Virus record (IMG/VR): IMGVR_UViG_3300032083_001532
Span: 1 to 58,474 of that record
Strand: one strand, 5' to 3'
From: a virus
Taxonomy: Duplodnaviria; Caudoviricetes
DNA length: 58,474 nucleotides
The stretch's first letter is position 1. Each line of letters begins with the position of its first letter. Shown here piece after piece: positions 33,135-56,298 of this stretch. The position numbers and the translations under genes are program-made. The notes under the pieces are model-generated. The model did no database searches, was not told the DNA's origin, and saw only the letters and a list, made by a program, of their open reading frames with translations.

Positions 33135-33138
33135 AATC

Positions 33139-36100: not shown

Positions 36101-39100
36101 GGCGTCGGGAGGAAGGTCGTGACGTAAAGACGGTCAGGGAAAGCAACCTGACCGACAAGGCCAAATACTCTTTTGACTACATGTTTGAGCCTGATGAGGC
36201 TCAACCCACCATGGCGTTCAGTGGTTCAGATGAAGACCTGAATGTTGATGAGCTACCAAGGGAACTTAACGGGTGGTCACTTGAAAAGATCGCCCCCGGA
36301 GACAAGGAATGGGCCGCGTATGAAGACACGCCCATTATGAATGAGCCGCCATTGCCGGACCTTGATGGCAAAACATTGTCTACTGGCATGGTTATGATTG
36401 AGCCGGATGGTCGTGTGTGGATTACCGAGCCAACAAATCATTTTGGTGGATATGAACACACCTTCCCGAAGGGTGGTATGGCGGAGGGGCTAACCCTACA
36501 ACAAAACGCCCGCAAGGAAGTCTATGAGGAGACTGGTCTTCTTGCGCGTGCTGCTAGTTGGCTTGGTGATTATGAGGGTGATAAGTCAGTCACCCGTTAT
36601 TACATTGGGATGCGCCATTCAGGAAGTCCCTTGGATCATGGTTTGGAAACCCAATCCGTCAAGCTTGTGGACTTCAAGGAGCTTGATAGCTTCCTGAACA
36701 AAAAGCGGGACAAAAATATCTCCGGGGATATTTTCAGCCTCATGAATTATGGCGATAGCACGCTCAACGCTACGTATAACAACTTCTATGGTAAAGACGT
36801 TAATACCTTCCAGCCATTTGACGAAACAATGGACGCTGGAGATTTGGAAGACCTCTTTAATAGCGCCCTTGGCGCAGTTACAAAAGACAGCGAGCCACAG
36901 AACACGGAACCTTCTGTAATTAACGCCCACCATAATGTTCTTGCTGATGGTGATCCCCTGACAGGGGCACCAACCAATATCTTTGAATATGAAATGTTTA
37001 ATCCCACGCAGCGCGGGTCAAACCTTGGCGCAACGTTCACAGACAGCCAAGGAAACAGGTTCTATATCAAGGCGTATGAGAACCCGGAACAGGCACGGCA
37101 AGAGGTTGTTGCGTCTCGCCTTTATCAGGCCGCAGGCATCCCCGCGCCCCGCGCCTTTCTTGTTTCAACACTTGATCCCAATACCGCTGACCCATTTGTA
37201 TTCCCCGGTGGCATGGCACCAAGCGAAACAGCCGTGGCAACCAGATGGGTAGAGGGCTATTCACAAAACTCGACTGTGTTACAGAACCAGACAGCTTCTC
37301 TTACCGATGTCCATGATGGATTTGTGGTGGATGCTTGGCTGGGGAACTGGGATGTGGTTGGTCTGGACTTTGACAACATGCTTGTCGGGGAAGAGGCCGG
37401 TGCCGTCATTCGCATCGACCAAGGCGGCACCCTACAATTCCGGGCGCAGGGTGGCAGCAAACCGTTCACCGATGAAGTTCTGGAACTGGACACCATGCGT
37501 GATCCACAGATGGCACCCCAAGCAACCCGAGTTTTTGAGGGTGTAACCGATGAAGATTTGCGTACTGGTGCGCAGCGGATCATGGCTATTCCTGACGATG
37601 TTATCTATGACATCGTAAACCAAGCGGGTGCCGACCCTTCTTTGGTCGATACCCTTATTGCCCGTAAAGCGTACATTGCTGACAAGGTTGGCGTTATCAA
37701 GAACAGCGGTGTTATTGTGCCAGACTTGGGGGCCAATGTTATTTCCTTTGGGGATTTGAAGGAAATCGGCATGGATTGGAAGGCTTCTCATCGAGAGGCT
37801 TTTGATGCTTGGGAGGGGAATATACAGGGTCCGGGCAACGCCCGCGCCATGGATGCGTGGATCAAAAATAACTCGGAAACATGGCAAGCGTCTTTAGATT
37901 TCATTCATTCCCGGCTTCGGAAGCTGGCTCCGAGTGGAAAAATCTTTTTGTTCCGTGATCCCGGTGGGTGGGGAAGTTACTCAGGCCCTGACAGGGCGGG
38001 AATGAATTGGCGGTTCAGCGAAGAACACCCATACATGTCCATGTCCATAAATCATAAATTTGGCAGCAGTGGCATCACTGGTCGCTTTGCAGCAACAGTT
38101 GATATTGAAGACACCATTGGCGTGACCGCAGGGGCATGGGCTGATGAGGCTGAAATAACCGTCAAGCGCAGCGGCATCGAGCAAACCCCTTTCGTTACCA
38201 TCCTGAACGGGGATTATGGTTCTGCTATAGTTAATCCACAGTCTGCAAAAGCGGCCCTTGCCGGGGCAGCAAAAACCGCGCAAGAAATTCCCGGCATAGC
38301 GTACCCAGTCTATGAGGGTGGCGCAAAATATGACCAGCCATCATTGGTTCATCAGGAAGAAACATATCAGTCTCACAGTGATTACGGGAGAAACTTCCAG
38401 CACTATACAGGCTCCATGCTCACAGCAAACTTTGGTGGTGCCGTCATGCAACGGGCCATCAATGATGTTGTTGCCGATGGGATCGCGGGAGCGCGGGCTG
38501 AAAACATGCCGTTCTTTATGGCTATGGAGCGTATCGCTGACAAAGACATTGACGCTTTTTATAAAGAACACGGTCGATTGCCAGACTTCGTTCGCCCCGG
38601 TGTAGATATCAGCCTTCGCCCTGCTCGTATTCAGGGCAAGAAGGGGATGAATGAACAAGCATCCCAAGGGGAGATGAACCGGACGCTTTCTAGGCTTCTT
38701 GCTGGCGCGGGGCGTGAAGTTGAGGTCGCCCTCTTTAATCAGAATGACGGCAGCAGCTTAAAGACAAATGCTGCACGCATTATGTGGACGCCTGAAACCC
38801 AGATGGAAGTGAAAAACCTTGCTAACGCAAAGTCCTTGGAAGAGTTCAGCGAAGAGGTTCAAAAGCGCCAGTACGAAATGCACCGTAAAATGAGTGGGCT
38901 TGTTCGCTCTATTGTTTCATCCAAGGTCACCGTACAAATACCTGCAAATATTACTGGAAAGCAAATCAGTGAGTTTTGGCGGATTGCTGAAGAGGTGGGC
39001 AGCGCCAAAGAAGATGTTAAGCAGGCAGATGAAGCGTTTCCTGTCGCCACTAAGAACAACCCGTTTACCTATCTGGAGCAACAGGTAGGTGACAAGCCTT

Positions 39101-42100
39101 ACATTGAGATTGTCTTTGAGGGCGTTGGTCGGAATGAAGATGTCGCATCAAAATCGGCACAGCTATGGTACTATGATGCCATCACAGCAGGCAAAGGAGA
39201 GATGGATGCCACAGAAAGATACCTCCGGGGGCAGTTCTTCCCCGAAGAATTCGAGGTCACAGTCGGGGAAGACGGCTCTGTCGAAGCGCCGTTCGCCAAT
39301 GAGCCACACGCAGCATGGAGAAGGCCGGTCGCGCACGCCATACTCCGACGACTGGCAGTGGATGACGGAACATGGGGCAGAAACCTCTCCGACGCAGATC
39401 GTGCTGGGGTTCAGAAAAATCTGAACAAGATTTTCACCGAAGAAGCTATGCCTTTTGAACATCAAAAGGATAGCAAGCTTCGGAACGTTGCTGAATACAA
39501 CGCACAGTTTGCCAGCCAATCAGATCGCTTGGCTGACCTGCGCAAGTGGTCAAAGGTTGAAGACCTAAAGACCCTGCGGGAAGAACTGGAAATAGACCCT
39601 GACACAAAGCGGTTCTATTCACAGCCTTACGACGACAACCTGACCGAAGAGATGAATGCCGTGATGAACAAGCATTCCCCTCATCGTAAGCAGGCCACAG
39701 TCGGGCAAAGCATTCTTGATAGCTTACAGCAAAGGGGTGATTGGCTTACCGCCCTGCGTCAAAAGTTCATAGACAAGTACGACAAGATCGCCAAGAACAG
39801 CCAGCTTATTGCCCAGATGATGGGCGACGAAAAGATGTTGTACGCTGATAGCTCCGCAGCAGCAGCAGCTTACCTGTCTGATCGCGCCCGTGGCATCTTT
39901 GCTTCGGTGATCAAGGCTGGCGTACCCACTTATATAAATGGCGGGTTCAAGGTCGTTACGGAAATCGGTGGCCAGAAAGTCGGGGGTCTACTTGATATTC
40001 TGCAACCCCTTTACCAGAACGGATATAACACCAACCTTGTCCGGCAGTGGCAGACATATGGTATTGCACGTCGTGAGCAACAAATCCTGATAGATCAGGC
40101 GGCGGACCCTGACTACAAACCTGACTACGTTTTCCAGATGAGCAATGCCGAGCGCACAGCGGCACTCAATATTGCCAACGCCTACCCGGAAGTTCAGGTG
40201 GTGTTTGAAGCCTACAATGAATGGAACGGGCACACCGTCAAGTTCATGCGGGACACCGGTGTTATTGATGATGCCGCAGCAGATGAATGGATGCGTGGCT
40301 CATCATACATCCCGTTCTACCGGGAACTGGACGGAGAAGGTCCGCAAGGCCCCGTTGGCGTGCTTAGTGGTCTGGCAGACATTCCTACTCCGCGCAAACT
40401 AAAAGGCTCCACCGAGCGCCGTGTTGGCGACCCCATTGAGAACCTTGCCCGTAACGCTCAGGCGGCTATCACAGCAGGCATGAAGAATGTTGCTATGCAG
40501 AGGGCAATGCGTGACGCATACACGCTAGGGCAGGCTCGCAACCTGACGGCGGCAGTTGAAGCTGGTGAAATCTCCCGCGAACAGATGGAGAAGGACAGCA
40601 CCCACACCTACCGGCAGGACGGCAAGACGATCAACGTAGCAATATATGACCCGCTATTATTTGATGCAGTCAGTTCGGTTCATGAAGGTCGGCTCCCCGG
40701 CTGGGCTTCTATTCTGGCGGCACCATCAACCCTGTTGCGGGAAACGGTTACCCGTGATCCCGGCTTCATGCTGGCCAACATGCTTCGTGATACAGCCTCT
40801 GTCTGGGTCACGTCCGGTGCCAACATCACTCCGGTGGTTTCCACACTTAATAACTTTGTTCGGGAGAGCAAAGACTTCTTGGCTGGAAAGCAGGATGAAA
40901 ACCCGCTTGCGCTGGGCGGTGTTATTGGTGGTTATGACTTTTCTCAAGACCCCAAGAACATCAAGAAATGGATGGAACGGACCATGCGTGAGAAGGGCAT
41001 GTCCAAGAAAACCAACTGGGACTATTTCCGTCTTGTGTGGGATAAGGCAGGCGACCTAACTACAGCATCTGACGCAGCTACACGCATGGCTGTCTACAAC
41101 GATGTCCTCAAGGACACGGGCAACGAATACCAAGCCATGTATCAGGCGCTGGAAGTAATCAACTTCTCCCGGCGCGGATCGTCCCCCGTCATGCGGGTGA
41201 TGACTGCCATGATCCCGTTCCTGAACGCACGTATCCAAGGTCTGGATGTGCTGGCGCGGGCCATGGCTGGCACCTATTCAGCAAAAGATGTAAACAACCG
41301 GTCGGCTGCGACCATGCGCTTCCTGCTTCGTGGTGCCACCCTGACGGGCTTGTCTCTAGCATACTATGCGCTGATGTATGACGATGATGACTACCTGTCC
41401 AAGGGCATGGCCGAACGTGACGATCACTGGATTGTCCCTGTCGGTGAGGGTTTGCCCCCGGTCATGATCCCCATCCCGTTTGAAGTGGGCTTTATGTTCA
41501 AGGTTATCCCAGAGCGTCTTGCCGCCATGTTCGCAGGTGAAGACCTGCCACGCGATGTGTCCGCATCAATCCTTCGCGGGATTGGCACTACGCTTGAAAT
41601 GAACCCGGTGCCGCAGTTTGCCATGCCAGTGCTGGAAGCCACGATGAACTATTCTTTCTTCAAGCAGAAAGACATCGTGCCCTATTACATGGAGAACCTT
41701 GACCCGACCCTTGAAGCTCGCACCACCACGTCTGACACAGCCCGTCGCCTAGCCATGGGGGTGGATGCGGTGGCTCGTGGGCTTGGCCTTGCCAGCCCCG
41801 GTGAAGAAGCCGGTATGCTGGAGAGCTTCCGGTCGCCGCTCAAGATGGAGCAGATCATCAAGGGCTATACCGGCACCATCGGGACATACATTCTTGAAAC
41901 AACAGACGCGCTTGTGCGTATGGTTGAAGGTGCCCCCGAGCGTCCGGGCCGCAGGCTTGATCAGCAGCCCATCCTGAAAAGGTTCTTGTCTGCAAACACT
42001 GGCTCTGGCCAGTTGGAACAGTTTTATGAAATGCGTTCAGCAGTAAGGGAAGTGGCTGGAAGCATTCGTGAGCTTGAGGCGCGTGGTCGGTTTGATGATA

Positions 42101-42357
42101 TGGCTGAATATTACCAGACCTATGGCTGGCTGTTGCAGATGGACAATGCGCTGTCCAATATCGACGATACGCTGGGCAAATATCGAGACCTCATTGAGCT
42201 AATCTTCCGCGATCCAAACATGAGCGCGGAGGAAAAAGAAGGGTATCTTGAAGATATCATATCCGCCCGTTCAGAGGTTGTTAGCGTTGTCCCTGAACTG
42301 CGCAAGTTCCTTTACAAAGACATGAAGGAAGAATGGAAAAAATCCATGAACCCCTAG
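33139..42357 (+). CDS. giant polyvalent internal virion protein (HExxH peptidase, NUDIX, kinase-like, probable ADP-ribosyltransferase, LPD38-like)
   Basis: ~3070 aa; HEYTH at 35635; NUDIX box G.....LTLQQNARKEVYEETGL at ~36475; YIK...E...WD....DNML...IDQG kinase-like at ~37015-37690; LFR/SMS/EAE at ~37950-38155; IPIPFEVG...NPVP...NYSFF...IVP...SP...IKGYTG LPD38-like C-terminus. Confidence 0.85.
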   Translation: MANVIRVNAPDKSYDFKIAGDKPTEEEYQRMDAFLMDRYPDYQGRPPEPDLLDYPGEFFTAIGRGALDMGATTLRGMGAEELSDDLREFTAKNLARDPSFEDSTAITLGEGLGSTIPFLATATAPGRLAKVGLGFGLGGFAGSGEQAERIEAYEERTGEDVPKWKEYLSRSLGFGVGLTEMLPPFRILKGIPRNIPNSAKEFVGQSIMDVIKGGGEEGLQEAASGLLQDFIEAGIYNPDLNVGESMWEEFTLGAGVGGILTGAVNTYALPGRIRKARQQERDLRAGEQKEQEKVQVLTEAQIDAANAPNVLQPDMQMQPNESPGDFARRQMEAEYGPAPKNVPNVQYNPLQRQDGFWEILNDNGVAMGAPARTEAEAKERIDVYSQFAYQARVAEELANVTGGADSTTGQPTTATAGDIHQMLDEKNIKWDEDPDFMAFTKTITGKERLDDLTSYELGNLKNTLAPLPTQPSLRSFGDVQNDFRQNSEGTDGDAAKYSLPDIDPATVQPGQTVTLFDPMGTPVDVQAEAVSEAGSIIYTHPETGESNIADASEFGTKDPTSPLFVIESMPKKPEVREIPDNTLAWLDRRLSEKIDAHLNADRDAVSSEIFHFMRQQNAVRAEKSRRETSADSIEARSMNEQARSTERVPPTVEDTENAVERSADTNSEQMDQRHPEKKDEPSGPAVPEEAQREVEGIPAPDEKDAVPPEQRKRQKMKKGKPAKNAGKQTPEPVEVPEPEVRPEQEVATPMVRFNEDFEADTVKLEKEFQEKLNKLGASSVMVRLAKTLFTNKSGTRGAHGVFANKLIGLSLGHTDPNASYDKKMEALTPHFYHEYTHWLRTNDKFKPSEWRGLVAYSKRNKMPGQNLSIYEAARKVYTDGGTDLRRDSKARDRVEEEAVAKIFELATAGTIKLNGGPKAQHKEVMGFIEKLGDTLRGRNRNSVQSIFERFNAGQIAARPDKIRTFQALRRHGYPPISKPPSDAADEERRREEGRDVKTVRESNLTDKAKYSFDYMFEPDEAQPTMAFSGSDEDLNVDELPRELNGWSLEKIAPGDKEWAAYEDTPIMNEPPLPDLDGKTLSTGMVMIEPDGRVWITEPTNHFGGYEHTFPKGGMAEGLTLQQNARKEVYEETGLLARAASWLGDYEGDKSVTRYYIGMRHSGSPLDHGLETQSVKLVDFKELDSFLNKKRDKNISGDIFSLMNYGDSTLNATYNNFYGKDVNTFQPFDETMDAGDLEDLFNSALGAVTKDSEPQNTEPSVINAHHNVLADGDPLTGAPTNIFEYEMFNPTQRGSNLGATFTDSQGNRFYIKAYENPEQARQEVVASRLYQAAGIPAPRAFLVSTLDPNTADPFVFPGGMAPSETAVATRWVEGYSQNSTVLQNQTASLTDVHDGFVVDAWLGNWDVVGLDFDNMLVGEEAGAVIRIDQGGTLQFRAQGGSKPFTDEVLELDTMRDPQMAPQATRVFEGVTDEDLRTGAQRIMAIPDDVIYDIVNQAGADPSLVDTLIARKAYIADKVGVIKNSGVIVPDLGANVISFGDLKEIGMDWKASHREAFDAWEGNIQGPGNARAMDAWIKNNSETWQASLDFIHSRLRKLAPSGKIFLFRDPGGWGSYSGPDRAGMNWRFSEEHPYMSMSINHKFGSSGITGRFAATVDIEDTIGVTAGAWADEAEITVKRSGIEQTPFVTILNGDYGSAIVNPQSAKAALAGAAKTAQEIPGIAYPVYEGGAKYDQPSLVHQEETYQSHSDYGRNFQHYTGSMLTANFGGAVMQRAINDVVADGIAGARAENMPFFMAMERIADKDIDAFYKEHGRLPDFVRPGVDISLRPARIQGKKGMNEQASQGEMNRTLSRLLAGAGREVEVALFNQNDGSSLKTNAARIMWTPETQMEVKNLANAKSLEEFSEEVQKRQYEMHRKMSGLVRSIVSSKVTVQIPANITGKQISEFWRIAEEVGSAKEDVKQADEAFPVATKNNPFTYLEQQVGDKPYIEIVFEGVGRNEDVASKSAQLWYYDAITAGKGEMDATERYLRGQFFPEEFEVTVGEDGSVEAPFANEPHAAWRRPVAHAILRRLAVDDGTWGRNLSDADRAGVQKNLNKIFTEEAMPFEHQKDSKLRNVAEYNAQFASQSDRLADLRKWSKVEDLKTLREELEIDPDTKRFYSQPYDDNLTEEMNAVMNKHSPHRKQATVGQSILDSLQQRGDWLTALRQKFIDKYDKIAKNSQLIAQMMGDEKMLYADSSAAAAAYLSDRARGIFASVIKAGVPTYINGGFKVVTEIGGQKVGGLLDILQPLYQNGYNTNLVRQWQTYGIARREQQILIDQAADPDYKPDYVFQMSNAERTAALNIANAYPEVQVVFEAYNEWNGHTVKFMRDTGVIDDAAADEWMRGSSYIPFYRELDGEGPQGPVGVLSGLADIPTPRKLKGSTERRVGDPIENLARNAQAAITAGMKNVAMQRAMRDAYTLGQARNLTAAVEAGEISREQMEKDSTHTYRQDGKTINVAIYDPLLFDAVSSVHEGRLPGWASILAAPSTLLRETVTRDPGFMLANMLRDTASVWVTSGANITPVVSTLNNFVRESKDFLAGKQDENPLALGGVIGGYDFSQDPKNIKKWMERTMREKGMSKKTNWDYFRLVWDKAGDLTTASDAATRMAVYNDVLKDTGNEYQAMYQALEVINFSRRGSSPVMRVMTAMIPFLNARIQGLDVLARAMAGTYSAKDVNNRSAATMRFLLRGATLTGLSLAYYALMYDDDDYLSKGMAERDDHWIVPVGEGLPPVMIPIPFEVGFMFKVIPERLAAMFAGEDLPRDVSASILRGIGTTLEMNPVPQFAMPVLEATMNYSFFKQKDIVPYYMENLDPTLEARTTTSDTARRLAMGVDAVARGLGLASPGEEAGMLESFRSPLKMEQIIKGYTGTIGTYILETTDALVRMVEGAPERPGRRLDQQPILKRFLSANTGSGQLEQFYEMRSAVREVAGSIRELEARGRFDDMAEYYQTYGWLLQMDNALSNIDDTLGKYRDLIELIFRDPNMSAEEKEGYLEDIISARSEVVSVVPELRKFLYKDMKEEWKKSMNP

Positions 42358-42367
42358 ACCGGAACGC

Positions 42368-42871
42368 CTAAAAGGCGTATCCGTGTTCTTCTGAAAAGGC
42401 TCCACGCAACTCAACAAACCTCTTCCTTACATCGGCATCAGTGGCGATTTCACGCCTGCTCTCCGCGCCAATCAATTGAAGCATCGCTTCCTTGGCGGCA
42501 TCCTCACCCAACTCATCACAGTATCCCTTGCTGTTCAGCCAGACTTGGAACTCTTCGTTCTTGCACAGCATTGCCGCTGACGTAACAAGCTTCTGCCCCT
42601 CTGACTTGGGGGCAGACGTGTTGCCCATGTGGTTGCGTCGGTCGTATGGCCTGCCCTCATCATCCATTCGCACCATTGCGACTTGGTACCGGGCACCCAC
42701 ATAGTCCCTGAACAAATCTTCTGGAACATCGTCAGGATGAATGGCCAATGTCAAATTGTGACCATCCTTAGTTTGCCGGATGGCTGTCTTGATCGCCTCA
42801 AACGTCAGCGCCTTTGACCGCACATCATCTTCATCATGCTCTACGAAATCCCAAGGGTTTTCATTGCTCAT
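42368..42871 (-). CDS. conserved hypothetical phage protein
   Basis: FEA.K.A..Q.KDG..L.L.IHPDD.P....RD.VGARY...MV pattern. Confidence 0.7.
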   Translation of the reverse strand: MSNENPWDFVEHDEDDVRSKALTFEAIKTAIRQTKDGHNLTLAIHPDDVPEDLFRDYVGARYQVAMVRMDDEGRPYDRRNHMGNTSAPKSEGQKLVTSAAMLCKNEEFQVWLNSKGYCDELGEDAAKEAMLQLIGAESRREIATDADVRKRFVELRGAFSEEHGYAF

Positions 42872-43154
42872 GTCTTATTTCCTTCCATCTTTTGTATGCT
42901 TCCCTACACCATTCGGCAGCATCTTTTCCTTGCAGCGCCCAGAACGTTCCTTCTCTCCCAGAATAGCGAAGGTGGATCGTTTCGTGGCATGGCTGGCATA
43001 TCGGCACCACCCACTGGTCTCCTGCGCGTAGCCCCATACCCCGTGTATTCGGTATGAAAGTCAGGTGATGGGCTTGACCGCCGCCACGCCCACAAGACAG
43101 GCAGCGCATACCCCTCACTTTTATCAACCAATTTTTGTCTTGGTATCGTGCCAT
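42861..43154 (-). CDS. DUF968/Ref-like HNH nuclease
   Basis: CLSCG...AHHL.......GMG....D.WVVPIC..CH..IH. Confidence 0.7.
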   Translation of the reverse strand: MARYQDKNWLIKVRGMRCLSCGRGGGQAHHLTFIPNTRGMGLRAGDQWVVPICQPCHETIHLRYSGREGTFWALQGKDAAEWCREAYKRWKEIRHEQ

Positions 43155-43206
43155 ATCTACGTTATATTGACGCTATTGAAAGACGCCCCAGATTGTCTTT
43201 CTTGTT

Positions 43207-43258
43207 AGCGGGGTGGTGTTTGGGTTCCCTTCCAGTGACACCGCCCCGCTCTTTTTTT
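43207..43258 (+). terminator. + strand hairpin-terminator with a 16-nt loop antisense to the early-gene RBS motif (possible sRNA)
   Basis: 14-bp stem AGCGGGGTGGTGTT/GACACCGCCCCGCT with two G.U pairs (favouring + strand folding), loop TGGGTTCCCTTCCAGT, then C-T7. Confidence 0.7.
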
Positions 43259-43325
43259 GATCAGGGGCTTCGTCTCATTTGATTGTTACCCTGCTCCGCA
43301 CCTTACGGAAAGCAGCAGGCAGGGG

Positions 43326-43667
43326 TCAATCAAAAGGGATTTCATCGTCCAGATCAGGATCAAACCCACCAGCATCACCGAGCGAAAAGTCTTCGCCCCC
43401 GCCACCGTTGCGGGAGTTTTCGTATTCTTTCCTTTCGGTCTCACTCTGGACGTTGATGGCAAGCCCAACATAGGGTGTGCCCTTCTTGGACTTGTTCTTC
43501 CACCCGGACACCCGGATTTCATAGTCTTCACCCTTTTTGACAAGACCAATAATCTTTTTCAGGTCGTCCATTGATAGCGTGATGTTCCCTGAAAAGTCAG
43601 GCGACTTGTCGCTACGTCGGTTTTGCGGGATGAAAAGCGCCCCACCAGATTTATCATCATAAGCCAT
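43326..43667 (-). CDS. single-stranded DNA-binding protein (DUF736-like)
   Basis: GALF......KSPDFSG.I, VSGW...SKKG..Y, acidic tail ending DDEIPFD. Confidence 0.75.
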   Translation of the reverse strand: MAYDDKSGGALFIPQNRRSDKSPDFSGNITLSMDDLKKIIGLVKKGEDYEIRVSGWKNKSKKGTPYVGLAINVQSETERKEYENSRNGGGGEDFSLGDAGGFDPDLDDEIPFD

Positions 43668-43688
43668 TTGTCTTTCCTTTCTTGGCTA

Positions 43689-44510
43689 TTACGCCGCCTC
43701 TTCAAGTGAGGCGGTTCGTTCTTTGAACATGTTTGTGATTTCTTCAAGCAACGAGCTATTGCTTTCGGAGTAATATTCAAGGCGTGCCTTGTTGTCCTTC
43801 CAAATTTGACGAAGGTCAGCCTTGTTATCAACGCCCTCAATAAAGACAGCAAAGGCTTCAAGAACATCTTCATTATCTGTGGCGCTTTTGCTGATTTCAT
43901 AACCGGCAGGCTCCGGCTCGGCCTTGTCTTCAACATCGAGTTCATCAGTAACATCAAGGTCATCAATGTTCCCAACGGGCGGCTCTTCCTTTTCCAAGGG
44001 CGGCAGGCCAAACGCATCGTCGGTTTCCTTGGCGTCATCCATGGCAAATGGATCAGGCGCTTCGGTCGTTTCCTGATGGCCTTCAAAGGCGTCATGCCCT
44101 TCCGGGTCATCACCTGTTGAAAGCTGCAACAGCTTGAGGATCATGTACTTGTTAGCCCCGGTGATCGCCTTGTACAGGCCCTTGTCCCCAACACCGTTCC
44201 TGTGCCTGTCATTCCCGGCACCACCACCACCGAAGACAACTTCACTGCCACTGGCTACATGGTGAACCTTGTATTCCATGCGGACAAAGACGTTACCAAA
44301 CTTGTCGATGGGGGTGATGTCATTGACGGAAGAAATTATGACCAGCCCATATTTAAGCATCGTCGGCCTTACAGCTTCGATAACATCGGCCTCTCCGGCG
44401 AATTTATATCCGTGGAAGTCGTTGGTTCCTTTCTTTTCAACGTGGCCTATTTCACGAGCCACATGGAGTAATGCGTCATAGACGTTTGCTGTCTGTATTT
44501 CTTCGCTCAT
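43689..44510 (-). CDS. ERF-family single-strand annealing protein
   Basis: K.G.N.FHGYKFA.E.DV...VRP.M..YGL, GDK.LYKAITGA.KY......TGDDPE. Confidence 0.85.
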   Translation of the reverse strand: MSEEIQTANVYDALLHVAREIGHVEKKGTNDFHGYKFAGEADVIEAVRPTMLKYGLVIISSVNDITPIDKFGNVFVRMEYKVHHVASGSEVVFGGGGAGNDRHRNGVGDKGLYKAITGANKYMILKLLQLSTGDDPEGHDAFEGHQETTEAPDPFAMDDAKETDDAFGLPPLEKEEPPVGNIDDLDVTDELDVEDKAEPEPAGYEISKSATDNEDVLEAFAVFIEGVDNKADLRQIWKDNKARLEYYSESNSSLLEEITNMFKERTASLEEAA

Positions 44511-44752
44511 TCTTCTCTCCAGCATCGAATGCCGCCGTCAATAACACGGGTCGTGAACCTCTTGTTGTGCTTGCGTCCGTAATAGGATGCAGCGGCCCTT
44601 AGCCGAATAGCGTCCTTTGACTGACTACTACGGCATGGCAAATCAAAGTGATCGCCCACATTCATGATGTGAAACGGCCATCGTCGCCGCCTACTGGTCT
44701 CAACAGACGGAAGTGGCACGCCACTCTTGATTTCAAATTCAGTGTCATTCAT
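44507..44752 (-). CDS. small DNA-binding protein
   Basis: FEI..GVPLP......WPF..M.VGD.F.....L..AA..YG....F.TR....GIRCWR motif common in phages. Confidence 0.7.
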   Translation of the reverse strand: MNDTEFEIKSGVPLPSVETSRRRRWPFHIMNVGDHFDLPCRSSQSKDAIRLRAAASYYGRKHNKRFTTRVIDGGIRCWREE

Positions 44753-45725
44753 CGTTTCCCTTCTCTCTTTCTGGGTATAATTCCGGGTTTTCTTTCTTGT
44801 ATTGGGCGTATTGCCCACACCACCGCGACACCCGGCAGTAATCACCATCGCAGCGTGCCGGGGTTCCCGGCCTGTGTTTCAATTCGTACTGCTGGTCCTT
44901 CATGTTTTCTTCAATCCAGTCCAGCGCCTCTTTCTCTGTTTGTGCCGCCTTTGATGGCACCTTCGCCAGAGGTCCGGCCTTTGTGTAGCGGAACACCGCC
45001 CAGTCACCAGCCCGTAGCCAACGCTCTTCATCGGAGCAGGGGGGCAGCATATCCGGTTCATCAGCATAGGTTTCGTGGTCGTTATGAACATCCATATGCA
45101 TCTTCATGCGCGTGCGTATGAAGTCGGCAGTTTCTGCCATTGGCCATTTCTTGATATCCACCATGTGGACCGCAGCCTTTGGATATGTCTTTTTGGTATC
45201 GACCCGGCTTTGTTGCCAGTCACGCAGGATCGCGCAGATGCGAAGCCTTCGCACTTTATAGTTTGTGCAGGCTTCCACCAAGGCCCCGTAAACATTCAAT
45301 TGTTTGGCCCAGTCTTCCTTGTCTTTGTCTTGGTCTGCTGAAATTATGACTGACCACACAGAGGTAAACTTGTAGTCAATGATATCAACAACCGGTGTCC
45401 CGTCATCCGCCTCACCAACGTGCTGTACATCAATGGCACCCGACAAAACATAATCACCCACTTTCATGAACAGGCGTTGTTCTGTAAGATGTTCGTTATC
45501 GCCCCCGCTTTCGAGGACGTAATGGATCGCAGACCCGAACAACATCCAGACCGCTTCGGACACGTCCTGTTCGATTTCATCGTTGTGCATACGGCGCAAC
45601 GCTTTCACCTTCGGCGCATCAATAATATCGGTCACGGATTTATCGGCGGCACCCCGGCTATATTCGCGGCGTTCAAGCGCATTGATCAGTGGCGCAGGCA
45701 AGTTGAATTTGTTCGTGAATTTCAT
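44745..45725 (-). CDS. PD-(D/E)XK exonuclease (Cas4/RecB-like)
   Basis: MK.TNK.NLP, SVT.I, G.AIH, TEQRL, LSG.ID, IDYK.TSVW, QLNVY, C...E.W, RC..YC.V..WC. Confidence 0.85.
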   Translation of the reverse strand: MKFTNKFNLPAPLINALERREYSRGAADKSVTDIIDAPKVKALRRMHNDEIEQDVSEAVWMLFGSAIHYVLESGGDNEHLTEQRLFMKVGDYVLSGAIDVQHVGEADDGTPVVDIIDYKFTSVWSVIISADQDKDKEDWAKQLNVYGALVEACTNYKVRRLRICAILRDWQQSRVDTKKTYPKAAVHMVDIKKWPMAETADFIRTRMKMHMDVHNDHETYADEPDMLPPCSDEERWLRAGDWAVFRYTKAGPLAKVPSKAAQTEKEALDWIEENMKDQQYELKHRPGTPARCDGDYCRVSRWCGQYAQYKKENPELYPEREKGNDE

Positions 45726-45766
45726 GTCGGTTCCCTTCTACTGATTGGCAATTTAACAGCAATACG

Positions 45767-46141
45767 ATGAGTGGTCAAGTGTTCGAAAAGGCGTTAGCCG
45801 AATTTGTTATCATAGGGGAGCCATGTTCAAAGGCAAACAGCCGTAAGATTGTGAAGATAAAGGGAAAAACACGATCCATAAAATCAGACAAGGCGCTGGC
45901 CTATGAGAGAGACTTCCACAGTCAGTGCCCCAACCTTGATGAGGTCATCGAAGATGATGTTTGGGTAGACATAAGGATTTGGTACGCATCACGGCGTCCT
46001 GATCTGGATGAGAGCATTATACTGGATGCCATGCAAGGTCATATTTACAAAAATGACCGGCAGGTAAAGCTCAAACTGATTGTTCACAAGGGCGTGGACA
46101 AGGTAAATCCAAGAGCAGCAATAAGAGTTGGAACCCTTTGA
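45767..46141 (+). CDS. RusA-like Holliday junction resolvase
   Basis: GEP.SKANSR, SRRPDLDES.ILD.MQG.IY.NDRQV, DK.NPRA. Confidence 0.85.
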   Translation: MSGQVFEKALAEFVIIGEPCSKANSRKIVKIKGKTRSIKSDKALAYERDFHSQCPNLDEVIEDDVWVDIRIWYASRRPDLDESIILDAMQGHIYKNDRQVKLKLIVHKGVDKVNPRAAIRVGTL

Positions 46142-46142
46142 A

Positions 46143-46382
46143 ATGAAAGAACTATATCGGTCCATCATCAAGCAGGCAGCAAAAGACCTTTGCGGCAAAA
46201 ACGACAAAGACAGAATGGAGGTTGTTCGGTGGATGACCGGAGAGGATTTTGAGGAAACCTGCGTTGGTGCCGACGTAAAACCTGAACTGCTGAAAAAGTT
46301 TTTTGTGGCTATGGTGAAGGTGCCGTTGGATGAACGGAAGAGTTATTCCCAGTCACTAATCAGCGTTTTGGATGCATCGTAA
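46143..46382 (+). CDS. hypothetical protein
   Basis: LYRSII.QA..D...W...DFEE.C..A pattern; follows RusA. Confidence 0.6.
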   Translation: MKELYRSIIKQAAKDLCGKNDKDRMEVVRWMTGEDFEETCVGADVKPELLKKFFVAMVKVPLDERKSYSQSLISVLDAS

Positions 46383-46590
46383 CCCCGCCCGAAAAAAAAT
46401 CGGGCGGGTTATATATATAATAATATTATTATCTCTTACTGTAGATGATAATAATCTCTATCAGACTGTATTTATTATAAGCCCTTCACTTTATGTGAAG
46501 GGCTAATATAAGATATCTCATACTGTAGTTATCCCCATACTATATAATCTACTGTTATATATATAATAATATTATTTATATAACACGCGT
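46381..46590 (+). other. AT-rich putative replication origin
   Basis: extremely AT-rich island with 23-bp direct repeat GTTATATATATAATAATATTATT (46408-46430, 46554-46576), central inverted repeat AGCCCTTCAC/GTGAAGGGCT (46480-46504), repeated ACTGTA, GC hairpin at 46384-46408; just upstream of primase-helicase. Confidence 0.55.
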
Positions 46591-46711
46591 GCGTAGCAAA
46601 AATCGGGCCAAAAATAATTGCGGCACTACCTCAATTTTTCCTTGCAACGGACAGGCCCCTAGTGACAGGATCGCAGATGCGGCTTGGACTGATTAACTGG
46701 AAGGGAAAAAC

Positions 46712-48595
46712 TTGTCTACTACTTCACACGACAGCACACTTAACGACTTTGCTGAAACTTCACTACGCGATACAATTGTCTCAAAAGATTTGAGGCAAGG
46801 CCAGCATCGGCTCATCTGCCCGAACTGCTCACCGGGGCGAAAAAAATCATGGGAGCAATGCCTTTCCGTCTACATTGAACCGCACCGGGCGATGTATTCC
46901 TGCAAGCACTGCGCGTGGGAAGGCTCTGTGCCGCTGCGGGATAACATCGTTAATTTCAGGCCCAAGCAGCCGAAGGAAGAGGATGAAAAGGCGCTTGATC
47001 TGGGCTTCGACATCAGCCCACCCACGGAAAAACAATACCAGTACATGGAAAGCGTCAGGCATATACCGCGCACCACCGTCGATCACTACGAGCTATGCTC
47101 TGCCCAAAAATGGTTCCGGGCACACAAAGAAGAACGAGAGGCGTTAGGGTTCCCTTACCGTTCATCAGCAGCATCAGAGTTTCACGCCATCAAGTGGCGC
47201 AGCGACAAGAAGCAGTGGACACAGGATGGGGGTGCAAAAAGCTTCTTCGGCCTCAAGCAGTTTGAGCGGTCAGCATCCGGCCCCACCGAGGAAGACCCGC
47301 TCATCATCACGGAGGGTGAATTCGATGCGCTGGCAGCGCACGCAAGCGGATACCATCACGCCCTAAGCGTACCGAACGGGGCACCCATGAAACTAAGCAC
47401 ACAGAAGAAGGCTCCCGGCGACGACCGGAAATACCATTTCTTGTGGGCTGCTAGGAACTTGCTGGAAAATTGTGACAGGGCATATATTGCTTGTGATGCT
47501 GACGACCAAGGGGAAATCCTTGCGGAGGAACTGGGGCGCAGGATTGGCAAGATTAAATGCTGGCGCGTTAAGTACCCAGAGGACTGCAAAGACCTGAACG
47601 ATGTGCTGGTCAAGCACGGGAAGGATGAGGTCCAGAAGTGCATAAAGGATGCGGAACCCTTCCCGGTGTCAGGGCTTTACACGGTTGATGATTACCGTGA
47701 TCAGGTTAATGATCTTTATGAGAATGGCTTTGCCAAAGGGGCCACTATTGGCATTCCCGAAGTTGATGAGTTGATGACGATTGTTCCCGGCATGATGACG
47801 GTCGTGACCGGGGTGCCTTCGCACGGCAAATCAACTTTTGTGGACTACATGATGTTCCGTCTGGCTCGGGACCATGGGTGGCGGCACGCGGTCTGTTCAT
47901 TCGAGAACCCGCCATCCTTGCACATCGCAAAGCTGGCGCAGACGTTTACGCGCAAGCCTTTCTTCGATGGGCCGAACGAGCGAATGTCCCAATACGAAAA
48001 GGCGCTGGCTTTGGATTGGGTCAAGGATCGCTTTGTGTTCATCAGCGAGAGCGACGGGACGCCGCCTACGGTCGATAGCGTGCTTGAGCGTGCGAAGACT
48101 GCGGTCATGCGTTACGGGATAAACGGTCTGGTGATTGATCCGTATTCGCGCCTGAACGTCAAGGGCGAAGACGACACAGCAGGGATCGGTGACATGCTCA
48201 CGAAGGTGCAGGCGTTCGCAGCAGCGCACAGCGTCCATGTGTGGTTCGTGGCACACCCGAAGAAGCCGCAGTTTCCTGATGGGTATGTGCCAGCAGGCTA
48301 TGATATATCGGGGTCGGCCCACTGGTACAATCACACTGATTTTGGGGTTACCGTTCATCGCCCGGACAGGGAGAGCGCCAACGTAGAGGTACACGTTTGG
48401 AAGGTACGATGGGCAAACCTGCTTGGTAAACAGGGGCAAGCTGATATAAGATACGAACCTGTGACCAATCACTATTCGCAAAGGAATGGGTATGGCTACC
48501 AAGCGGAAGAGGAAGCGCAAAGTCCAGAGGAAGCCTTACGGCAGCGCGTCATCGACGGGGAGGCGCTCGAAGACCTCCCAGCATATCTCACTTGA
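46712..48595 (+). CDS. T7 gp4/Twinkle-type primase-helicase
   Basis: Zn finger CPNC...CKHC, TOPRIM ITEGEFDAL / D.D.QG / KDLND, Walker A TGVPSHGKST, VIDPY, VAHPKK, YDISGSAHW; TTG start after ACTGGAAGGGAAAAAC. Confidence 0.93.
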   Translation: MSTTSHDSTLNDFAETSLRDTIVSKDLRQGQHRLICPNCSPGRKKSWEQCLSVYIEPHRAMYSCKHCAWEGSVPLRDNIVNFRPKQPKEEDEKALDLGFDISPPTEKQYQYMESVRHIPRTTVDHYELCSAQKWFRAHKEEREALGFPYRSSAASEFHAIKWRSDKKQWTQDGGAKSFFGLKQFERSASGPTEEDPLIITEGEFDALAAHASGYHHALSVPNGAPMKLSTQKKAPGDDRKYHFLWAARNLLENCDRAYIACDADDQGEILAEELGRRIGKIKCWRVKYPEDCKDLNDVLVKHGKDEVQKCIKDAEPFPVSGLYTVDDYRDQVNDLYENGFAKGATIGIPEVDELMTIVPGMMTVVTGVPSHGKSTFVDYMMFRLARDHGWRHAVCSFENPPSLHIAKLAQTFTRKPFFDGPNERMSQYEKALALDWVKDRFVFISESDGTPPTVDSVLERAKTAVMRYGINGLVIDPYSRLNVKGEDDTAGIGDMLTKVQAFAAAHSVHVWFVAHPKKPQFPDGYVPAGYDISGSAHWYNHTDFGVTVHRPDRESANVEVHVWKVRWANLLGKQGQADIRYEPVTNHYSQRNGYGYQAEEEAQSPEEALRQRVIDGEALEDLPAYLT

Positions 48596-49088: not shown

Positions 49089-49131
49089 GTAACCTGCTAT
49101 TCAGGAAGTGCAATCCACCATGTAGTTGGGT

Positions 49132-49503
49132 TTATCCCCCATAGTTTTTTCCTTCCATTTCCTGAACGTCATCCTGTGCTTCGTACATGCTGTTCCATAC
49201 TTGGTGCAACATGCGCATCCGGTAATGATGGTCATCATCAAATTGGGACGCTTTGGCGACACGGTTCTTGAAGTTGGTGTAAGTGATGTTGTTGATTTCC
49301 TTTGTCAGTTCTTCAACAACGATTGGCTTGTCGATAAAGGCGCGGAACCGATAGTCCGTCCCGGCACCCTCAATTACATTTGCGTTTGTGTGCCCAAAGA
49401 TACTTTCGATGTCTCCGGGGAACCGGGCGCGGACGCAGAAGCGTTCGCTGTTATTCTTGTCTTCGACAACAGACAAGACTGCGTTTTCAGTAAATAACCA
49501 CAT
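49132..49503 (-). CDS. conserved hypothetical phage protein
   Basis: MW.F.....SVV.........VRAR..GDIE.....TDYRFRA......I.Y.NFK pattern. Confidence 0.75.
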   Translation of the reverse strand: MWLFTENAVLSVVEDKNNSERFCVRARFPGDIESIFGHTNANVIEGAGTDYRFRAFIDKPIVVEELTKEINNITYTNFKNRVAKASQFDDDHHYRMRMLHQVWNSMYEAQDDVQEMEGKNYGG

Positions 49504-49529
49504 ATGTTTTTCCTTCCAGTGATTTGACG

Positions 49530-49558: not shown

Positions 49559-49718
49559 GGGCTATACGCAAAGGCGTGCTAAAGTTTTATTGGTTTTCCC
49601 TTCCAAGTTAATAGTGATTGGTCACAAATAACCTAACGAATAAATGGCAGGGACCGGGATTAGCGGTAGCGAACCGCCTACCCGGCTTACGACACCCAGT
49701 TGCCGACACCGCGCAGTG

Positions 49719-49895
49719 TTAGCGTTTCATGTTCATGTCTACCTGATCTTGTTCAGTGCGTGACAGGGACACCTTTAGTTTGTTGTTGCTGGCTTCGACA
49801 GTTACGCTCCAACCATCTTGGCGCAACTCATCAATTGCTTGCCCAAAGGGTTCTAGCGCGGCGTTTACTTTGTCTACCGCCTCTTGCCTGTTCAT
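49719..49895 (-). CDS. small hypothetical protein
   Basis: GGAG RBS then MNRQEAVDKVNAALEPFG; 58 aa. Confidence 0.55.
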   Translation of the reverse strand: MNRQEAVDKVNAALEPFGQAIDELRQDGWSVTVEASNNKLKVSLSRTEQDQVDMNMKR

Positions 49896-50139
49896 TGGTT
49901 TTTCTCCATCCCAACAGAATGTTGGTGCTATAGAAGTCTCTGGAACGACCGTCTCTCTCGTACAATAGCGCAACTCTAGCGCACGGCACCACACGAAAGC
50001 GAGCGCCAAATACACGAAAGCGCATATTGGTGAAACGTTCGCCGGGACATGCTCGTGCTAGTCGTTTCAGTTCATCAAGGGTGATTGGCCTGCCCCTTTT
50101 GGGGACAGGCTTTTCAAGGATGCGATTATACATCCTCAT
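49831..50139 (-). CDS. Arg-rich hypothetical protein
   Basis: ATGA-coupled to the 50136 stop; 3' end overlaps the next gene. Confidence 0.45.
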   Translation of the reverse strand: MRMYNRILEKPVPKRGRPITLDELKRLARACPGERFTNMRFRVFGARFRVVPCARVALLYERDGRSRDFYSTNILLGWRKTNEQARGGRQSKRRARTLWASN

Positions 50140-50804
50140 TGTGATCCCACAGCGTCAAGCAGGGCTTTATCGGGAAGCGGCGCACCCCAGACAGTTTCTG
50201 GTTTTGTTCCAGACGTGGTTAGTTCTTTTATTAAGGCGTATGTGGCTTGACCGCGCAGGTCCATCAGCCAATCATAGGCTTTGCTGTTTCGCCAGCCGAC
50301 ATCATTACAGGCTTGATATTCAAAGCAATTTACGCTTGAGATAACCTGAGTTGGTTCAAATGCTGGCCAGTAATTATTTTCAAGAACGCTTATAGCGGCT
50401 TCCTTGTAGTTCGCTGAAGCAACTTCATCCTGTCCGTACCGGGCCTGCATGGAAAGCTGATTGCTTTCGATTAGCATGTCCAGAATTCTGTGAATGCTTT
50501 CCCCTGTATAGGGGCGATCAGAATAGCTTTCGGACGCCCGGACAAGGTACGCCAGATGGTGCGGGTCTACATAAAATGCGAATGGTTTGATCTCCTCTTT
50601 ACTCTCCACAACTTTCCAGTTTTTATCAGTGATGACGTAGGGCCTCTCAAAGCCATCCAGCGCCTCAAAGGTTTCTTTGAGTGTTGGGAACCCATCCCAT
50701 ACTTGTGGCGTGCCGCCCCACCTTTTCAGGTAGCGCAAGTGGTCGTTTACGGAGCCTTGCTCGTAATCTCCATCAGACCAGAACACAAAATAGTTCAAGT
50801 TCAT
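50136..50804 (-). CDS. hypothetical phage early protein
   Basis: repeat-element RBS; N..S..ARY ... C.EYQAC...W..S.A pattern. Confidence 0.7.
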   Translation of the reverse strand: MNLNYFVFWSDGDYEQGSVNDHLRYLKRWGGTPQVWDGFPTLKETFEALDGFERPYVITDKNWKVVESKEEIKPFAFYVDPHHLAYLVRASESYSDRPYTGESIHRILDMLIESNQLSMQARYGQDEVASANYKEAAISVLENNYWPAFEPTQVISSVNCFEYQACNDVGWRNSKAYDWLMDLRGQATYALIKELTTSGTKPETVWGAPLPDKALLDAVGSQ

Positions 50805-50914
50805 GGTTCTTCCTTCCAGTTAAAATGTTATCAGTCACAATTTGCGACTAGGGTTATTGAAAATAACCTAACGAATGGGGTGGTGCGCAGTAGATGTACC
50901 GCGCACCACCAGCG

Positions 50915-51154
50915 TTACCCGATCCCCAAAGCGTCAGCAACCTTGTCTTTGTTCATAACGTCGGTGCGGCTCATGTAGACAGCGGGACCGTCCAATACGG
51001 CCTTAAAGCCTTCGCCGTGGGCACGCTGGGCGTACCATTGGCCATGGTCGTTGCAGTTGATATAGGCCACTAGGTTCGACATTGAGCCAGTGTGACCCGC
51101 ATACATGTGGTGCTGATTGCGGTGGCTGTTCAGGATTATGTAGTTCGTGTCCAT
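50915..51154 (-). CDS. small early protein
   Basis: ATG directly after ACTGGAAGGAAAACCA. Confidence 0.65.
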   Translation of the reverse strand: MDTNYIILNSHRNQHHMYAGHTGSMSNLVAYINCNDHGQWYAQRAHGEGFKAVLDGPAVYMSRTDVMNKDKVADALGIG

Positions 51155-51249
51155 TGGTTTTCCTTCCAGTTGATAGTGATTGGTCATAAATAACCTAACC
51201 GGGTAGCAGTTAGATCACTTACGTTCTCTAACTGCGTCCCCGAATGATT

Positions 51250-51828
51250 TTAGTTCATGCCAAGTTTGTCTTTGGCGTCATGGATGGTGGAAATCAGGCG
51301 TTGTCTTAGGGCCTTGTCGCCACGGTCCATAACCGCCGCAAGTTGCTCTGCCTCTGGCAGATAGACCTTCGCAAAGTCAGGGTCGTGATCGGCAATATCA
51401 AGTGTGTTGTCTATCAAGTCAGCATACTTGATGGTTTGTGTCGCATAGCCTTGAGAAGAGGCTCGGACAGCTTCGGCAGCTTTACGGGCGGGCCTGTTCA
51501 TGTCAGGATACGCTTCGTGTGTGTAACGATCCGTCAGATCATCCACCCATTCAGCCACAATCGGCCCAAATTGTTCATCAATTTCACGCCTTGTCACTCC
51601 GCAATCTTCGATTGTGTCATGCAAGACTGCGGCACAAAGCATAGCTTGGTTTGCCAAAGCTATGTGCTTCATGTCGTGGCCTGAGTTTATAAGCGTGTGT
51701 GCCACGTTCAGCGGATGCTGAATATATGGCGTGTCTGTGTATTTGCGGACTTGCCCATCATGGACTTCGGTCGCAAAATCAATAGCACGCTTAAATCCCG
51801 GCGAAGCCGTTATAGGATATGTCGTCAT
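51250..51828 (-). CDS. HD-domain hydrolase, SpoT/Mesh1-like small alarmone hydrolase
   Basis: A..FA...H.GQ.RK....PYI.HP..VA, AAVLHDTIEDC, V..LTD, IK.AD..DN. Confidence 0.85.
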   Translation of the reverse strand: MTTYPITASPGFKRAIDFATEVHDGQVRKYTDTPYIQHPLNVAHTLINSGHDMKHIALANQAMLCAAVLHDTIEDCGVTRREIDEQFGPIVAEWVDDLTDRYTHEAYPDMNRPARKAAEAVRASSQGYATQTIKYADLIDNTLDIADHDPDFAKVYLPEAEQLAAVMDRGDKALRQRLISTIHDAKDKLGMN

Positions 51829-51907
51829 GGTGTTTTCCCTTCCAAGTAAATAGTGATTTGTCATAAATTGACTAACGGGGACAGGGTGTTAGCCCTGCCC
51901 CCAATGC

Positions 51908-53437: not shown

Positions 53438-53558
53438 GGTTGATGTTTCCCTTCCAGTAATTGTTACCAGTCACAATTTGTGACCGGGGCTATTGAAAAT
53501 AACCTAACCGGGATGCGGTTGGATCACTTACGTTCTCCAACCACAGCCCGAATGATTT

Positions 53559-54452: not shown

Positions 54453-54559
54453 GGTTTTTTCCCTTCCAGTTTAGTGACCAGTCACAGTTTGTGACCGGGA
54501 CCAGTGTAAATGGCCTAACCGGGACAATGCTAATGCATTGCCCCGAATACCTTCAAATA

Positions 54560-55582: not shown

Positions 55583-55744
55583 GGCTTATTTTTCCCTTCC
55601 AGTAGTAGTGACCAGTCACAATTTGAGACTGGGGTTATTGAAAATAACCTAACGAATAACTTAACAAAATCAGTGACCTAGCCCCCTATCACCGTAAGGT
55701 TCTAGGGGGCGTAGGCACTGGAAGGGCACCATTGCCCAACGTTA

Positions 55745-56035
55745 CTAGCCTACGGCTAGTTCAGCCTGTCGCCGTGAGGCTCTGGCCTTGTTCAGGTTTT
55801 CAGCCGATACGATAGAGTATCGGCGCTGATGCACTTCGCCTTCGGAGCCAAGCACCGGGAACTTGATTGTTCCATTCTTTTCCATCTGGAAAAGAACGCG
55901 CATGGCACCCTTGGTGGTTCGGTATGGCTCATTATCCAAGTGTAACGCCCATTCAAAAGCCTTGGCTTTGCGGTTGTAGCACTTGAACTTGCCGGAGTTC
56001 CAGCCGCCAAATCCATGCTCAACAATGTAGAACAT
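55745..56035 (-). CDS. small early protein
   Basis: GGGAG RBS before ATG 56035. Confidence 0.6.
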   Translation of the reverse strand: MFYIVEHGFGGWNSGKFKCYNRKAKAFEWALHLDNEPYRTTKGAMRVLFQMEKNGTIKFPVLGSEGEVHQRRYSIVSAENLNKARASRRQAELAVG

Positions 56036-56045
56036 TGTGTTCTCC

Positions 56046-56231: not shown

Positions 56232-56298
56232 GGTTTGTTCCTTCCAGTTGGTAATAACCTAACCGGAACAAGGCGTTAGCCTTGTCCCGAATGCAGTA

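Follow-up and report, generated by a model that had tools for sequence, protein, structure and literature searches.

What would a terminator-like hairpin do when its loop is the complement of a ribosome-binding site (RBS) that several genes of the same genome share? This question is raised by positions 43207-43250 of IMGVR_UViG_3300032083_001532, an IMG/VR record of a virus of the Caudoviricetes, which was analysed as a whole (58,474 bp, with an estimated completeness of 96%) and is called the window in what follows. In the original prediction, the hairpin was seen as a candidate small RNA (sRNA) with several targets, which would be read from the plus strand, antisense to its flanking genes, and whose loop would pair with the RBS of early genes. 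Taken as a whole, the explanation towards which we lean slightly is that the element ends the transcripts of the structural (late) block and carries a possible anti-RBS loop. The anatomy of the locus makes the terminator role on the plus strand quite probable, and the added function, in which the loop would repress the genes carrying the shared RBS in trans, is a tentative proposal that we hold as more doubtful than likely. The hairpin and the complementarity of its loop are real and are not products of chance.

The 5′ arm of the hairpin (43207-43220) pairs with its 3′ arm (43237-43250) through 14 base pairs, nine of them G-C, and a run of seven T residues comes directly after the stem. On the plus strand, two of the pairs are U.G (T43214-G43243 and T43220-G43237). 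As both turn into A.C mismatches on the minus strand, the RNA of that strand folds about 5 kcal/mol more weakly (-26.3 kcal/mol, z -6.27) than that of the plus strand (-31.5 kcal/mol, z -6.33), for which none of 200 shuffles gave as good a fold. Additionally, no T-tract follows the hairpin on the minus strand. The assignment to the plus strand, which had been made from the two G.U pairs and the T-run, is thus supported, and the element is indeed antisense to its neighbours, as the HNH and SSB-like genes on its two sides are both encoded on the minus strand. In our own scan of both strands of the whole genome, 22 candidates consisting of a hairpin and a T-run were found, of which this was the strongest. 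On the plus strand, no other compact GC-rich hairpin with a T-run lies between it and the one at 4556-4578, so that it is the first to follow the structural block at 4590-42357. While the loops of the other terminators of the genome have 4-7 nt, the nominal loop has 16 nt here, which the predicted fold reduces to an apical loop of 6 nt (UUCCCU) over a 4-bp helix and a 2-nt bulge.

Within this loop, TGGGTTCCCTTCCAGT, 12 nt are the exact complement of the box ACTGGAAGGGAA. In the genome, this 12-mer has five perfect matches and four with one mismatch, and these nine compare with 0.29 expected (none of 100 shuffles reached nine), so that the predicted antisense relation between the loop and a shared RBS lies far beyond chance. 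The perfect core was located, as claimed, before the starts at 46712, 53437, 54452 and 55582, and the near-matches that had been listed before 49503, 50804, 51154, 51828, 56231 and 56550 were also found, with one mismatch or looser (Table 1). All the coordinates given in the original prediction proved correct. The fourth one-mismatch match (55717-55728, plus strand) does not stand before a gene. The 8-mer core of the box, CTGGAAGG, occurs in 14 copies: nine precede start codons by 4-10 nt on the sense strand, the hairpin holds another, and the remaining four are elsewhere. When a weight matrix was built from the nine start-proximal sites, 13 sites scored at least 15, namely the nine training sites, two further start-proximal ones (51848 and 49161), the hairpin copy and a copy without a start near 49609.

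The box belongs to one class of genes. None of the 34 genes of the plus-strand structural block has GGAAGGRA within 25 nt upstream, compared with 12 of the 36 other genes, and AGGAG-type sequences are found instead upstream of 14 structural-block genes. The nine start-proximal sites are conserved over ACTGGAAGG, followed by an A-rich tail. By our own pairing, the 3′ end of a standard 16S rRNA pairs only with the AAGGG of the box and not with the conserved ACUGG, the part that is matched by CCAGU in the hairpin loop. As the conservation of ACUGG goes beyond Shine-Dalgarno (SD) pairing, something else would have to read the box, be it an RNA, a protein or a structure in cis.

Agreement with these gene classes is also seen in the predicted pairing of the loop. 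When 70 translation-initiation regions were ranked by a rough duplex energy together with opening costs, the best nine were those of eight box genes and of the exonuclease gene, with net energies from -10.9 to -3.6 kcal/mol; the RBS of the exonuclease gene is the near-copy GAAGGGAACC, a 10-nt complement of the loop. The ddG values from RNA cofolding were discarded because cofolding cannot model kissing between a loop and its target. A genome-wide duplex scan that included the stem bases gave no convincing cis partner on the plus strand and was dominated by G/U-rich chance duplexes.

Other copies of the anti-RBS are present in the genome. Five of the 14 copies of the 8-mer core are not followed by a start codon, and all five put the anti-RBS on the locally transcribed strand or on the strand of a terminator; three of them (43221-43236, 4544-4551 and 55717-55728) are in or beside a hairpin. 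The copy at 55717-55728 would act on minus-strand RNA, where a cis pairing with the RBS of the AAA gene about 115 nt downstream is predicted. The 10-bp long-range helix that it would form with 55594-55603 encloses a hairpin and operator-like palindromes (-69 kcal/mol, z -5.54, in the segment 55575-55750), and in this model it would block the translation of the AAA gene from read-through transcripts. The copy at 4544-4551 is directly 5′ of the plus-strand terminator at 4555-4579, the 5′ arm of which contains CCCTTCC, and the predicted pairing at the base of that hairpin is with the terminase initiation region (CGCCUU with AAGGUG at the start, 4590). Since the anti-RBS is on a transcribed or terminator strand in all five cases and hairpins are found at three of them, anti-RBS pairing looks like a recurring device of this genome. 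A shared origin of the hairpin with the segment 4500-4585, where a similar AGCGGGTGGTGT is seen by eye, was considered and rejected, as local alignment did not rank it. Overall, an anti-RBS riboregulator is a plausible hypothesis; it is coherent, has experimental precedents and finds some internal support in the genome.

The surroundings of the boxes have features of their own. The intergenic spaces of the early region (49590-56900) are built of repeated cassettes, for instance those at 53435-53508, 54446-54519, 55580-55653 and 50799-50872, in which a variable hairpin, GGTTAGGTTATTTTCAATAACC (a 7-bp inverted repeat), GGTCACAAATTGTGACTGGTCAC (overlapping inverted repeats, operator-like), the RBS box and an ATG follow each other. 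Three sub-families can be told apart (74 nt in four copies, 46 nt in four copies, and 87 nt in two copies plus a third, shorter one), and the cassettes look like per-gene units of terminator, operator and RBS. On the minus strand, 49594-49609 holds a start-less operator-plus-RBS copy, ACTTGGAAGGGAAAACCAATA, with an inserted T and with ATA where the paralogue at 51154 has ATG (...CCAATG); it is followed by a near-consensus promoter, TTGACA-17-TATACA, and a second RBS box for the gene starting at 49503. An additional RBS-like box, GAAATGGAAGGAAAAA, is found on the minus strand at 49101-49161, inside the 3′ end of the gene at 49132-49503 and before an open reading frame (ORF) of 13 codons, which ends just before a strong minus-strand terminator (49072-49047).

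The position of the hairpin in the transcription map is what makes a terminator of the late block the simplest reading. Large terminase and structural genes occupy about 38 kb of the plus strand (about 4590-42357). Only 10 nt separate the stop codon of the giant gene at the end of this block (42357) from that of the convergent gene (42368), and there is no terminator between them; rightward transcription would therefore cross two genes antisense and meet this hairpin first, 0.85 kb past the last plus-strand stop codon and inside an oppositely oriented operon. According to this explanation, RNA polymerase would transcribe the phrog_19763 and HNH genes antisense over about 0.9 kb and come off the template at 43258, short of the SSB-Erf-exonuclease and replication genes. 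Every RNA ended at 43258, whichever promoter made it, would then carry the exposed UUCCCU loop in a protected 3′ hairpin. This loop could kiss the GGGAA of the box, and the pairing would spread through the weak inner helix to CCAGU, occluding ribosome binding on the mRNAs that have the box and thereby linking late transcription to the shut-off of early and middle genes. Such a 3′ end of late-operon read-through had already been offered as an alternative in the original prediction; it fits the anatomy better than an independent sRNA does, and the link to early shut-off is something that we infer. A bolder version, which we consider rather unlikely, is a temporal switch made of RNA only, in which all non-structural genes would share the 12-nt extended box and the 3′ hairpin of the abundant late transcripts, or a small RNA derived from it, would silence the whole early and middle regulon in trans while the cis copies at 55717-55728 and 4544-4551 would gate read-through transcripts.

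Information from close strains is available from metagenomes of seawater, freshwater, aquatic and salt-marsh origin in four studies, where sequences with at least 99% identity are present. The variants were taken from contigs of four runs of these four studies, with some bins lacking contig cover in some runs (X7 does not reach the hairpin, and the listed piece of X8 ends at 43217). Four variable sites were found in 43167-43258 and none of them breaks a stem; one even replaces a U.G pair of the outer stem by C-G. The 16-nt loop is unchanged in the strain contigs that cover it, where about 0.7 changes would be expected. These data are consistent with the hairpin being maintained and are no test of the loop. 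In one strain contig, 18 unmatched letters follow 43258, which suggests an indel polymorphism of 66 nt: the SSB stop codon would lie directly beside the T-tract and the protein would end at ...IPF, with the 66 nt of 43259-43325 missing or different. The usual C-terminus of SSB is IPF. In the window, the SSB-like protein ends in ...DDEIPFD, one residue past that terminus.

Several results weigh against the proposed explanation. No relatives were found by any search route. A blastn search of 42300-46800 against GenBank phages gave no match, and neither viral nor metagenome contigs yielded a related locus when searched with the Erf protein; the nearest homologue of Erf among 5.8 billion proteins has 44-54% identity over about half its length. 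With the primase-helicase, eight viral loci were found at 36-37% identity, sharing only that gene, and its best matches in GenBank phages are three cyanophages (35.7% identity). The exact 16-mer of the loop has eight viral matches, none related, in one of which (L008) the motif is an ordinary RBS before an ATG; the cassette pattern has three matches in viruses and nine in genomes, again none related; the pattern of loop plus T-run has 21 viral matches, of which none is related and none is a comparable hairpin; and a 19-mer had a single, unrelated match in metagenomes. Covariance models from Rfam gave no match at gathering score over the whole window, and in 42300-46800 only two sub-threshold chance matches were obtained (E 0.14 and 0.76). 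The strain variants each rest on one contig with a depth below 5 and have almost no power.

Other points of the same kind concern the pairing and the transcription map. The net pairing energies are modest after opening of the inner helix and of the target structure, and the gene starting at 54452, which has a perfect box, ranked only 11th of 70. Strong duplexes numbered 18 with the real loop, but sequence-shuffled loops also gave many, 7.7 on average and up to 17. Promoter-like sites are not above chance, with 15 found and 16.4 expected in shuffles, so neither 43140-43168 nor 43167-43194 counts as evidence. The plus-strand terminator at 4555-4579 ends 11 nt before the start of the terminase large subunit (4590), which implies that the structural block is transcribed through it and leaves the map uncertain; antitermination is one possible way. 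The late transcription of lambda is antiterminated, and if that were the case here the terminator at 43207-43250 might also be read through. Finally, there was no RNA run among the 20 runs found, which says nothing on expression.

The main rival keeps the terminator and takes the loop as debris of a duplicated intergenic cassette or RBS, retained because it is recent or harmless. We judge it unlikely, but it has to be taken seriously, as duplicated cassettes make up the early region and the decayed box at 49594-49609, with its lost start codon and inserted T, shows that such copies can survive as debris. Nevertheless, that known relic has decayed whereas the 12-nt core in the loop is perfect, a difference that we count in favour of a function for the loop. 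Moreover, the insert of 16 nt is unusual next to the loop sizes of the other terminators, and the copy fills precisely the space between two fully paired stem arms and has none of the flanking boxes of the cassette. The likeness of the locus to 55706-55730 (21 of 25 positions) scores 30, which is marginal in view of shuffle maxima of 22-28. A terminator of the late block whose loop may also pair with the boxes differs from a stand-alone sRNA of about 58-84 nt only in the start site of the RNA. Such an sRNA, with its own promoter, would consist of the upstream hairpin SL1, a U-rich linker and the terminator hairpin. Its targets in trans would be the RBS boxes, and in cis it would serve as an antisense RNA against the 5′ leader of the HNH mRNA. 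All the arguments drawn from the loop apply equally to it, and its geometry is like that of lambda OOP and P22 sar (PMC12197685). From the site TTGGTA-17-TATATT, transcription would begin at a purine near 43175 and yield an RNA of 84 nt with two hairpins (predicted fold -39.7 kcal/mol, with the UUCCCU apical loop unpaired). The promoter that had been proposed, TTGACG-16-CAGATT, is present at its position, but its second hexamer agrees with TATAAT at only three of six positions and sites of this sort occur at chance frequency, as noted above. In addition, 43175 is A>C in one strain contig. We regard a stand-alone sRNA as improbable.

A further reading places the function on the minus strand, where the hairpin would show an RBS box in the loop of the SSB-HNH transcript and could serve as a decoy for ribosomes or a repressor, as an operator for an RNA-binding protein specific for the box, as a stabiliser of mRNA 3′ or 5′ ends, or in the control of translation of the HNH gene, which is devoid of an SD. 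If the operon is read through, the hairpin is part of its transcript and still folds at the energy given above for this strand. Nothing like an SD is seen in the 40 nt that precede the HNH ATG (43154), the conservation of the box beyond the SD core fits a protein that recognises the box equally well, and the SSB stop seems to abut the hairpin in one strain contig. Yet the loss of the two wobble pairs to mismatches and a T-run that would serve nothing on this strand are difficult to reconcile with such roles, which we hold to be very improbable. About 70 nt with two hairpins also separate the box from the HNH start, and no start codon, near-cognates included, follows it at RBS distance; a small minus-strand ORF served by the box of the loop was rejected for the latter reason. 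On the plus strand, the ORFs at 43065-43208 and 43148-43282 were judged spurious, because the HNH gene, to which they run antisense, has homologues.

The genes around the hairpin are included in Table 1. Pfam gives only NUDIX and LPD38 domains for the giant protein encoded at the end of the structural block, and its identification as an N4-type virion RNA polymerase was rejected. From 42368 rightward, almost all genes are non-structural and most are on the minus strand; the matches of the HNH/DUF968, Erf and exonuclease genes support those flanking the hairpin as real genes of that strand. Further right there are genes for RusA, the primase-helicase, an HD phosphohydrolase, a DUF2201 metallopeptidase/vWA protein, a DUF3150-like protein and an AAA ATPase. 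Matches to Rz-like spanins suggest, by our own inference, a Gram-negative host.

Table 1. Positions of the hairpin, its parts and neighbours, the RBS boxes, the anti-RBS copies and the strain variants in the window.
Feature	Position	Strand	Remarks
Terminator hairpin	43207-43250	+	14-bp outer stem, weak 4-bp inner helix, 2-nt bulge
Loop, 16 nt, TGGGTTCCCTTCCAGT	43221-43236	+	43225-43236 is the exact complement of ACTGGAAGGGAA
Apical hexaloop UUCCCU	43225-43230	+	contains UCCC; predicted fully unpaired
T7 tract	43252-43258	+	preceded by C43251
Hairpin SL1 (GAAAGAC / GTCTTTC)	43178-43201	+	10-nt loop; 5 nt upstream of the terminator, linker TTGTT
Promoter-like TTGGTA-17-TATATT	43140-43168	+	RNA of about 84 nt if started near A43175
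Promoter-like TTGACG-16-CAGATT	43167-43194	+	weaker than TTGGTA-17-TATATT
Strain variant A>C	43175		upstream of SL1; one contig
Strain variant G>T	43191		SL1 loop
Strain variant G>T	43204		linker; three runs
Strain variant T>C	43214		outer stem; U.G pair becomes C-G
RBS box, perfect	46696-46707	+	primase-helicase gene, start 46712
RBS box, perfect	53447-53458	-	DUF2201 metallopeptidase/vWA gene, start 53437
RBS box, perfect	54459-54470	-	DUF3150-like gene, start 54452
RBS box, perfect	55592-55603	-	AAA ATPase gene, start 55582
RBS box, 1 mismatch	49509-49520	-	start 49503
RBS box, 1 mismatch	51159-51170	-	start 51154
RBS box, 1 mismatch	56556-56567	-	start 56550
RBS box, 2 mismatches	50809-50820	-	start 50804
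RBS box, 2 mismatches	56237-56248	-	start 56231
RBS box variant ACTTGGAAGGGAAAA	51833-51848	-	HD-domain gene, start 51828
Second anti-RBS copy	55717-55728	-	predicted cis pairing with the AAA-gene RBS
Third anti-RBS copy CCTTCCAG	4544-4551	+	directly 5′ of the terminator at 4555-4579
Gene, 3083-aa polyvalent protein	33106-42357	+	last gene of the structural block; NUDIX at residues 1090-1199, LPD38 at residues 2760-2957 (Pfam)
Gene, phrog_19763	42368-42871	-	convergent to the giant gene; would be crossed antisense by read-through
Gene, HNH/DUF968 endonuclease	42861-43154	-	downstream of the hairpin on its strand
Gene, SSB-like	43326-43667	-	weak phrog_18154 match; acidic C-terminal tail; upstream of the hairpin on its strand
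Gene, Erf	43689-44525	-	
Gene, exonuclease	44745-45725	-	

Some additional observations were made on these genes. There is a second HNH endonuclease gene at 3045-3440, separate from that of the DUF968 type, and the DUF2201 gene matches phrog_1314, which is labelled HNH endonuclease in PHROGs. Inside the DUF2201 gene, 52691-52965 holds tandem and interspersed repeats of 9-47 nt, which look acidic and rich in Gly and Asp on the coding minus strand (judged without translation). The stretch 46383-46690, which has a bidirectional-looking hairpin (46384-46408) on one side and the primase-helicase gene on the other, is very AT-rich and has many repeats, among them an exact direct repeat of 23 nt at 46408 and 46554; it is a likely replication origin.

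By analogy, a terminator with an anti-RBS loop would be a new variant of the known RNAs that occlude an RBS through a loop seed, of which c4 and the LhrC or UCCC-motif sRNAs are examples. In LhrC of Listeria monocytogenes and the sRNAs with a UCCC motif (RNAIII, RsaE, SprD and FsrA), a C/U-rich UCCC motif in a hairpin loop, which may be that of the terminator, pairs with the SD of the target and blocks initiation (PMC4132741; PMC2790875). In LhrC, for instance, binding of the terminator loop to the SD region of lapB has been demonstrated with compensatory mutants (PMC4132741). These sRNAs are chromosomal, come from low-GC Gram-positive bacteria and use several redundant sites with short pairings. 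The element described here differs from them in being phage-encoded and in having a single site, which would be directed at the phage's own genes; its 12 nt of complementarity reach past the SD into a box specific to the phage, and the inferred host is, as mentioned, Gram-negative.

Closer in origin are RNAs of other phages. The c4 RNA is processed from the same operon as its target. In P1 and P7, loops of this phage antisense RNA pair at the RBS of a phage mRNA and block its translation (PMC12197685). While c4 acts on the ant/icd transcript in immunity control, about ten separate genes would be the targets here, and the RNA would arise at a boundary of convergent transcription. Lambda OOP and P22 sar are short, terminator-ended RNAs that act by pairing antisense to flanking genes and that come from positions between genes of opposite orientation or within such a gene; for OOP, RNase III takes part (PMC12197685). 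Both act only in cis on the gene that they overlap. Here, by contrast, what stands out is complementarity to RBS boxes far from the element; overlapping the HNH leader in cis, or both the HNH and phrog_19763 genes if the RNA comes from read-through, would add a further effect. In phage T4, an upstream anti-RBS of e, soc and I-TevI pairs with the RBS in read-through transcripts, and only transcripts that start internally are translated. These sequestering hairpins resemble the cis copy at 55717-55728 with its partner at 55594-55603, and not the hairpin itself. Ordinary intrinsic terminators at convergent boundaries likewise have a GC-rich stem and a U-tract, but not a nominal loop of 16 nt with the complement of a regulatory box, nor a position 0.85 kb past the last stop codon of their strand.

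If the terminator role alone holds, the element is an ordinary one. The switch from early to late genes in phages is mostly explained by proteins, such as sigma factors, antiterminators and factors of the RegA or RegB type. If the proposed function of the loop is true, a terminator loop would turn off about ten dispersed genes through the extended RBS that they share, which would amount to an RNA-based shut-off of a gene class and to a phage-encoded, multi-target riboregulator of the phage's own genes. It would also explain why one class of genes has an RBS box longer than SD pairing needs, and it would extend the principle of a UCCC seed in a terminator loop from the chromosomal sRNAs of Gram-positive bacteria to an aquatic phage.

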